Shown: positions 60,125 through 60,656 of the stretch, piece by piece
Position numbering within the stretch: the first letter of the stretch is position 1
Layout: each line of letters opens with the position of its first letter
Source: a virus
Virus record (IMG/VR): IMGVR_UViG_3300042197_004116
Coordinates: 11,464 to 75,463 of that record
Reading direction: 5' to 3' (one strand)
Length of the DNA: 64,000 nucleotides
Notes under the pieces: model-generated
Databases searched by the model: none
Seen by the model: only the letters and a program-made list of their open reading frames with translations
What the model was told of the DNA's origin: nothing
Program-made: the position numbers and the translations under genes

Positions 60125-60152
60125 TTGAATAATTTAAATCTATAAGTATAAT
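60125..60152 (+). promoter_or_regulatory. Sigma70-like promoter for the tRNA-Met/tmRNA unit
   Basis: TTGAAT-N16-TATAAT. Confidence 0.65.
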
Positions 60153-60157
60153 AATAT

Positions 60158-60230
60158 TGCGGGGTAGAGAAGAGGTTAACTCACCTGGCTCATAACCAGG
60201 AGATCATTGGTTCAAATCCAATCCCCGCGA
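60158..60230 (+). tRNA. tRNA-Met(CAT), initiator-like
   Basis: CCTGG-CT CAT AA-CCAGG; 5' TGCGGGGTAGAG, weak T1-G72 pair, A11-T24. Confidence 0.88.
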
Positions 60231-60242
60231 GTTCATTGACAT

Positions 60243-60649
60243 GGGGCTGAATTGGAATCGATTGAACAGTGTAGTTTATGAATGCAAGTACTGGGGCATG
60301 CCAGTATAAAATAGCAAAAAACTATTAAATGCCGAAGTCAACTTCGACATGGCTATGAGTCTAGAAGAGGCTGATGCAATTCTTGCAACTACTGGCTTTG
60401 TAGACGCAGAAGCCAAACTCGAGCTAGTTTAACTACTCGATCGTCTTATTGTAGATTGAGATTGGTAAAATAAGGCGTGTCACTAATCTCTGACTTGGTG
60501 TGTTATGGTAGTTATCTGCCAAGCGTATTAAATTACCATATAGAATGTGTTTTGCTTAGTTCTATACATTCTGAAGCTCAACTAAGATAAACTTGTAGTG
60601 TTTGTGAATAAAACTATTCAAGACCTGGGTTCAAATCCCAGCAGCTCCA
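60243..60649 (+). ncRNA. ssrA: tmRNA
   Basis: GGGGCTG/CAGCTCC-A acceptor stem with G3-U; 5' GGAATCGA; T-arm CTGGG-TTCAAAT-CCCAG; tag frame from GCC at 60331 after TAAAT. Confidence 0.93.
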
Positions 60650-60656
60650 TGATAAA

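Follow-up and report, generated by a model that had tools for sequence, protein, structure and literature searches.

The window, a 64,000-nucleotide stretch of phage DNA, carries a one-piece tmRNA (ssrA) gene of 407 nt at 60243-60649 on the plus strand, and this RNA is very probably a real tmRNA with a translated tag of 33 codons. The stretch belongs to a 75.5-kb IMG/VR virus record, 35% complete according to CheckV. It represents part of a genome of roughly 220 kb from a distant T4-like phage, and its baseplate wedge protein shares about 23% identity with T4-like cyanophage counterparts. The sequencing runs with this stretch are freshwater and freshwater-sediment metagenomes.

The tmRNA and its upstream region

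Relatives of the tmRNA were collected from IMG/VR in two ways. Motif scans with the ends of the tRNA-like domain gave four distinct relatives, and a degenerate pattern for tag codons 5-16 gave 23 loci. A further relative, L185, was found independently, and its E-to-Q change lies outside the search pattern.

An earlier note, made from the letters of the window alone, had recognised a tmRNA with an intact tRNA-like domain and a G3-U pair and proposed checks with ARAGORN and Rfam. Both programs place the RNA at this position, ARAGORN at 60243-60649 (+) and Rfam at 60243-60652 (+). The match to RF00023 scored 83.6 bits (E 6e-31; gathering score, 47 bits) and covered positions 1-374 of the 374-position model, and the tmRNAs of the relatives scored 82-92 bits. 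The acceptor stem has 7 bp (GGGGCTG/CAGCTCC) and includes the G3:U70 pair (60245:60646), which is kept in 19/19 relatives. The tRNA-like domain also has the discriminator A and a T arm, which together with the 3' strand of the acceptor stem occupies 60625-60648 (+) in the Rfam alignment. The acceptor stem and the T stem vary by compensatory pairs among the relatives, and in the T stem each pair shows 5-10 double changes (columns 390-406). The 3' CCA is not encoded by the gene, the bases after 60649 being TGA.

Covariation is seen in all the canonical tmRNA helices. RNAalifold with 19 family members predicted 92 pairs, and 35 of these had compensatory changes, which mapped to P2, the PK1 hairpin, helix 5, the PK2-4 hairpins and the T arm. 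For PK1-PK4 the scoring covered the hairpin stems, which are present, covary and are aligned by Rfam. The stop codon of the tag, TAA at 60430-60432 (+), lies in the loop of helix 5 (stem at about 60418-60441), and this helix covaries through CG/UA and GC/AU exchanges in columns 180-202 of the 19-member alignment. In every relative the tag stop is TAA or TAG.

Upstream of the tmRNA, a sigma-70-type promoter-like site (TTGAAT-16 nt-TATAAT) was found at 60125-60152 (+) by its match to the consensus at 10 of 12 positions. It ends 4 nt before a tRNA-Met (CAU) gene at 60157-60231 (+), which was called by ARAGORN, scored 64.5 bits with the Rfam tRNA model and ends 11 nt before the tmRNA. A site scoring at least 10/12 was present at a fixed distance in 15/22 family members, and only 6% of shuffled upstream regions reached such a score. 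It stands 18-24 nt upstream of the tmRNA, or about 5 nt upstream of the tRNA where one intervenes; members without an intervening tRNA-Met have it directly before the tmRNA. A CAU tRNA directly upstream was seen in 7 of the 22 members (the window, L036, L039, L040, L041, L043 and L044), and the tRNA-Met is probably co-transcribed with the tmRNA.

The spacer at 60232-60242 (+) is a 5' leader that directly adjoins the mature 5' end and contains the conserved motif GTTCATTGACAT. When the 22 members were compared, a leader of about 12 nt, GTTC(W)TT(R)AYA(A)(C)T, preceded the tmRNA in most of them, whatever lay upstream, with deviations in a few members such as L031, L005 and L006. This leader may be a precursor segment that RNase P removes. 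The sequence arrangement as a whole suggests that the host polymerase transcribes the tmRNA, probably early, and that the RNA is processed from a short precursor. A freshwater metatranscriptome contig of 187 nt covers part of the tmRNA of one relative, including the end of the tag frame, at low depth; it gives a weak hint of transcription, and carry-over of DNA is possible.

The tag frame and the tag peptide

The tag reading frame of 33 codons runs from 60331 to 60429 (+) and starts with the resume codon GCC. The Rfam alignment puts the consensus resume position at this GCC, just 3' of PK1, and among the relatives the resume codon is GCC in 19/19, preceded by A at -4 (19/19), A at -3 (19/19) and U at -5 (17/19). 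The upstream bases AAAT (60327-60330, +), conserved among the 19 sequences, include the A at -4 that corresponds to A86 of E. coli tmRNA, which sets the frame there (PMC2481249). No stop interrupts the 33 codons in any of the 24 pattern-derived copies or in L185.

In the window itself, ARAGORN reported a different tag. It resumed translation at GCA (60406-60408, +) and gave the eight residues AEAKLELV with the same stop TAA at 60430-60432, so that the 25 upstream codons would be untranslated RNA. The sequence UAGAC before 60406 resembles the E. coli upstream motif, a resemblance seen in the window sequence alone. However, this start is not conserved, as the codon at 60406 is TCA, TCT or ACA (Ser or Thr) in 10/21 distinct sequences and the base at its -4 position is A in only 10/19.

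The upstream codons, moreover, evolve as coding sequence. Over all 33 codons, the four sequences obtained with the tRNA-like domain gave a pN/pS of 0.20 in frame and of about 1.5 in either other frame. For the 21 sequences together, selection was read only from the 13 codons 1-4 and 17-25, because the search pattern fixes codons 5-16. These are codons left untranslated under the short-tag reading, and their pN/pS was 0.33 in frame versus 1.4-1.7 out of frame, or 0.18 in frame when two hypervariable codons were left out; the out-of-frame values of both counts span 1.4-2.3. Predicted RNA pairs inside the tag frame showed 0 compensatory changes (RNAalifold, 19 members). The coding-type evolution and the lack of covariation inside the tag therefore indicate that the tag is conserved as a peptide and not as RNA structure. 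In addition, ARAGORN itself called the full 33-residue tag in the relative L007. We rejected AEAKLELV on these grounds and regard a resumption at 60406 as highly improbable.

The resume codon at 60331 and the stop at 60430-60432 had been proposed in the earlier note, and the Rfam alignment and the comparative data agree with both. No other resume codon was found to yield a short tag ending in AA, since the ARAGORN alternative ends in LELV and its start is unconserved. What the present analysis adds at this point is the rejection of the short tag with codons free of ascertainment bias, and the contrast between covariation outside the tag and none inside it.

The behaviour of ARAGORN has a practical consequence. 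This program, the standard detector, made no tmRNA call in L005, L006 and L008, though Rfam gives 86-87 bits for them; L007 was the only locus for which it gave the full tag, and for the window it gave the short one. Because ARAGORN misses or mis-tags most family members, phage trans-translation is under-counted, and surveys based on this program will miss or mis-tag the family with the 33-residue tag. Genome papers usually list phage tmRNAs and say nothing more about them.

The tag occurs in 21 distinct DNA versions that encode 17 distinct peptides. Of its 33 residues, 22 are invariant, and for codons 5-16, which were fixed by the search pattern in 20 sequences, this invariance is partly ascertainment. 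Asp and Glu make up 10 of the 33 residues in the consensus, which lacks basic residues altogether; the copy in the window carries 8 acidic residues and a single Lys. The last three residues are ELV, never AA, in all 21 distinct sequences, and thus a terminal degron of the Ala-Ala type is absent from the tag. An AA end is typical of bacterial tags, not defining. The first nine residues of the consensus, AEDNFDMAM, resemble canonical bacterial tags such as GKSNFAMAA, and by sequence the whole tag looks like a canonical tag with its end overwritten and extended by 24 codons.

AlphaFold2 with the alignment of 17 peptides predicted one helix at residues 11-20 with a mean pLDDT of 66.8. We had considered a UBA-like helix-turn-helix in the tag and dropped it, as the prediction gives a modest single helix and no domain. 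Pfam searches with the tag gave a match at chance level only, and searching the PDB by sequence with the tag profile yielded nothing meaningful. The description of the tag in the earlier note as long, acidic and ending in LELV therefore stands, with 33 codons, 8 acidic residues in the window copy and an invariant ELV, and the tags of related phages, which it proposed to compare, keep both the ELV end and the GCC resume codon. Its further suggestion that the tag is probably helical is borne out only in part, by the single helix of the AlphaFold2 model at modest confidence.

The sequence comparisons indicate that the tag peptide is under purifying selection, and something therefore reads the tag sequence. 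Its conservation over the whole length argues for a specific reader.

Host dependence and the possible fate of tagged proteins

Searches for protein families in five related phage records, including a 229.7-kb genome to which CheckV assigns 100% completeness, found no SmpB, ClpP, Lon, S41 protease or CCA-adding enzyme, and the same searches were positive in bacterial control genomes. The earlier note had seen no SmpB gene in the window, and this holds also for the 75-kb record and for the 229.7-kb relative. As neither SmpB nor the CCA-adding enzyme was detected in the phage records, the RNA must use the SmpB, AlaRS, EF-Tu, RNase P and CCA-adding enzyme of the host; host proteases must also be required if the tag is a degron.

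The tag appears to be specific to phages. A degenerate pattern for the tag core found no match in 185,579 bacterial and archaeal species genomes, each species being represented by one genome, so the long tag, which by the earlier note would have spoken against its reading if shared by the host lineage, was seen in none of them. The 5' motif of the tmRNA occurs across many phyla, and all 15 sampled bacterial tmRNAs with a phage-like 5' motif encode 9-residue tags ending in AA. Identity over the whole tmRNA to these 15 bacterial tmRNAs was at most 49%, with the maximum in Saprospirales. That the tag is nearly unchanged in about 25 freshwater phage contigs and absent from the sampled bacteria suggests that the fate of rescued proteins matters to these phages, and its 33 residues offer a concrete peptide for finding the reader.

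A Bacteroidota host was at first favoured, on the tail-spike N-terminus, which resembles that of a Flavobacterium phage, and on the small number of Shine-Dalgarno motifs, a Shine-Dalgarno-like 4-mer preceding 9/46 long ORFs of the window. The conserved promoter of the family, of the TTGACA/TATAAT type, argues against it, whereas a second family of phage tmRNAs, Bacteroidota-style in its tags, has TAnnTTTG-type boxes (before L014, L015, L017 and L026). The G+C content of the window is 31.5%, and among the hexamers in the 25 nt that precede start codons TAAATA is the most frequent, present at 17 of the 46 long ORFs. The conserved promoter, the partnership with tRNA-Met and the argument on the host from promoter type go beyond the earlier note, as does a small ORF that accompanies the tmRNA family.

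This small ORF encodes a basic, beta-rich product of 64-75 residues and adjoins the tmRNA in 16/24 loci, in either orientation; examples are L007:8041-8262 (-), L005:2308-2532 (+) and L038:4367-4558 (+). All 18 contigs that encode it also carry the tmRNA family with the 33-residue tag. It is absent from the 75 kb of the source phage's record, belongs to no PHROG or Pfam family, and had no match with Foldseek (E <= 0.001) or VIA-align (Z >= 2). The idea that it is a CAP-Gly-like reader of acidic C-termini came from weak Foldseek rows and was dropped when VIA-align was unsupportive. We treat the small ORF as a lead only.

The explanation that we favour is a working phage tmRNA that runs on the trans-translation machinery of the host and carries a tag acting as a rerouting signal; taken as a whole, it seems to us evenly poised between right and wrong. 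Host RNA polymerase would transcribe the tRNA-Met and the tmRNA from the sigma-70-type promoter, RNase P would cut the 5' end of the tmRNA, and the host would add the CCA. The host AlaRS would then charge the RNA with alanine via G3:U70, and SmpB and EF-Tu of the host would carry it to ribosomes that stall on broken messages in the course of infection. The comparison shows that translation resumes at GCC 60331 and stops at TAA 60430, so that rescued chains would gain Ala plus 33 residues. The tag may direct these truncated proteins to some host protease or adaptor that does not simply read a terminal LAA as ClpX does, in the way that Lon reads the long mollicute tags, and the phage could thus keep ribosomes free without depending on, or loading, the normal ssrA pathway of the host. 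Given a real tag, the chance that it is a specialised recognition signal falls, in our estimate, a little short of even. We rank a degron read through a route other than plain ClpX highest, an ordinary hydrophobic-end degron in a long wrapper next, and a peptide that is not a degron or is read by the phage after these. The earlier note had offered rerouting away from ClpXP, a functional appended peptide and a counter to defences that cleave mRNA or tRNA as possible roles, and all three stay conjectural here.

The ordinary degron would have its nonpolar C-terminus read by the usual ssrA proteases of the host (ClpXP, ClpAP, FtsH and Tsp), with the extension tuning the rate or adaptor binding and the tmRNA boosting rescue capacity. 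The tag does end with two hydrophobic residues and a free carboxylate, and this -LV end may still make it a substrate of ClpX, ClpA, FtsH or Tsp. The start AEDNFDMAM resembles the canonical x-x-x-N-F/Y-A-L/M-A-A pattern, no phage protease gene was found in the related records, and a neighbouring phage tmRNA family has 23-residue tags yet keeps an ALAA end, so that lengthening alone implies no new fate. However, 22/33 invariant residues spread over the full length are more than a spacer for rate tuning needs, and the ELV end does not revert to AA in any of the 21 distinct sequences. We consider this reading unlikely, if reasonable. It is also rather unlikely that chains are rescued without being destroyed, the appended peptide keeping them soluble and harmless or binding a phage factor by which the products are marked, sequestered or sensed, with the small ORF as one candidate for the factor. 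The strongly acidic composition, the lack of basic residues in the consensus and the conservation as a peptide would suit such a role, as would the position of the small ORF beside the tmRNA and its restriction to contigs with this tmRNA family. The unrelated mycobacteriophage Bxz1 also has a long acidic tag ending in -LV, which hints at convergence on a common purpose. Generic solubilisation, though, needs no such conservation of sequence, and the small ORF, with neither a family, a fold match nor a demonstrated link to the tag, is absent from the source record, while its co-occurrence with the tmRNA may merely reflect the common ancestry of the contigs.

In a more specific form, the long acidic tag would be a phage-specific address that is read by a phage protein, perhaps the small basic ORF, to mark, collect or sense the products of stalled host ribosomes. 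We hold this to be doubtful; if true, unrelated phages such as Bxz1, with their similar acidic -LV tags, would have converged on one undescribed phage strategy. That the RNA acts mainly as a decoy, by titrating SmpB of the host or blocking its trans-translation, is very unlikely. The phage has no SmpB of its own, and the same idea was proposed for the domain-only tmRNA fragment of mycobacteriophage DS6A (PMC4131195), but conservation and covariation here extend to the mRNA-like domain, the pseudoknot hairpins and the tag frame, none of which a pure decoy would need.

Comparison with known tmRNAs

The present RNA shares most of its architecture with canonical bacterial tmRNA (SsrA, RF00023, the E. 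coli model): a putatively Ala-accepting tRNA-like domain with G3:U70, P2, the PK1 hairpin 5' of the resume codon, an A at -4, an Ala resume codon, a stop in the loop of helix 5, the hairpins of three more putative pseudoknot regions and a predicted dependence on SmpB. It differs in its tag: 33 codons against about 10, a highly acidic composition, and ELV in place of LAA at the end. Unlike the canonical RNA, it is encoded by a phage without SmpB, its 3' CCA is not encoded, and a tRNA-Met, probably co-transcribed, often lies upstream.

The novelty implied by the earlier note was overstated. Reviews give a range of 8-35 residues for tmRNA tags (PMC3968760), and 33 codons lie near the upper end of this range. 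The SsrA tags of Mesoplasma and Mycoplasma are long and are read by Lon (PMC9382460, PMC8403727); they have departed from recognition of the ClpX type and show that another AAA+ protease can use a long tag as its degron. The mollicute tags are cellular, have a YAFA-type end and co-evolved with the loss of ClpXP, whereas the present tag ends in LELV and belongs to a phage. Phage tmRNAs have been catalogued since the mycobacteriophage genomes, including cluster C/Bxz1 (PMC4131195), and were recorded in huge phages (PMC7162821). Long tags, ends other than AA and tmRNAs in phages have each been described before, and the present RNA is no new category.

The second phage family (L011, L014-L017, L024 and L026) also consists of one-piece tmRNAs beside tRNA arrays, with the same 5' motif and lengthened tags, here of 23 residues. 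These RNAs are 420-444 nt long and score 72-85 bits in Rfam (e.g., L017:5532-5971, -). Their tags have a Bacteroidota-style GEN start (GENPFF...ALAA), most copies keep the ALAA end, and the boxes before four of them differ from TTGACA/TATAAT as described above.

Two other viral contigs contained tmRNAs of unusual organisation. At L010:1402-1954 (IMGVR_UViG_3300033075_001751), a group I intron (RF00028, 83 bits, 1687-1924) appears to interrupt a phage tmRNA in the 3' half of its tRNA-like domain, and the open tag frame of about 37 codons starts with GNN and ends in AQAA. At L003:10757-11005 (-) (IMGVR_UViG_3300035180_000343, 129 kb), a permuted two-piece tmRNA (RF04321, 79.9 bits) was found, for which ARAGORN gives a 24-residue tag ending in RLAA.

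A close counterpart in kind is the tmRNA of Bxz1 and the other cluster C mycobacteriophages, which is likewise borne by phages among tRNA genes and has a long acidic tag with an -LV end in place of AA. When the Bxz1 tmRNA was run through the same tool, it gave a 25-residue acidic tag ending in -ALV. The features of this type, namely a phage-encoded tmRNA and an acidic tag of at least 20 residues with a terminal Leu-Val, are all found in the present tmRNA. The two RNAs have no detectable nucleotide similarity, however; blastn of the present tmRNA against 50,697 phage records, a set from which close records may be absent, gave no match, and by eye the tags agree only in composition and in their AE...LV ends. 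In contrast to Bxz1, the present phage is T4-like and from freshwater. From these sequence features, the tmRNA of the window would work like the Bxz1 type while standing outside the Bxz1 lineage.
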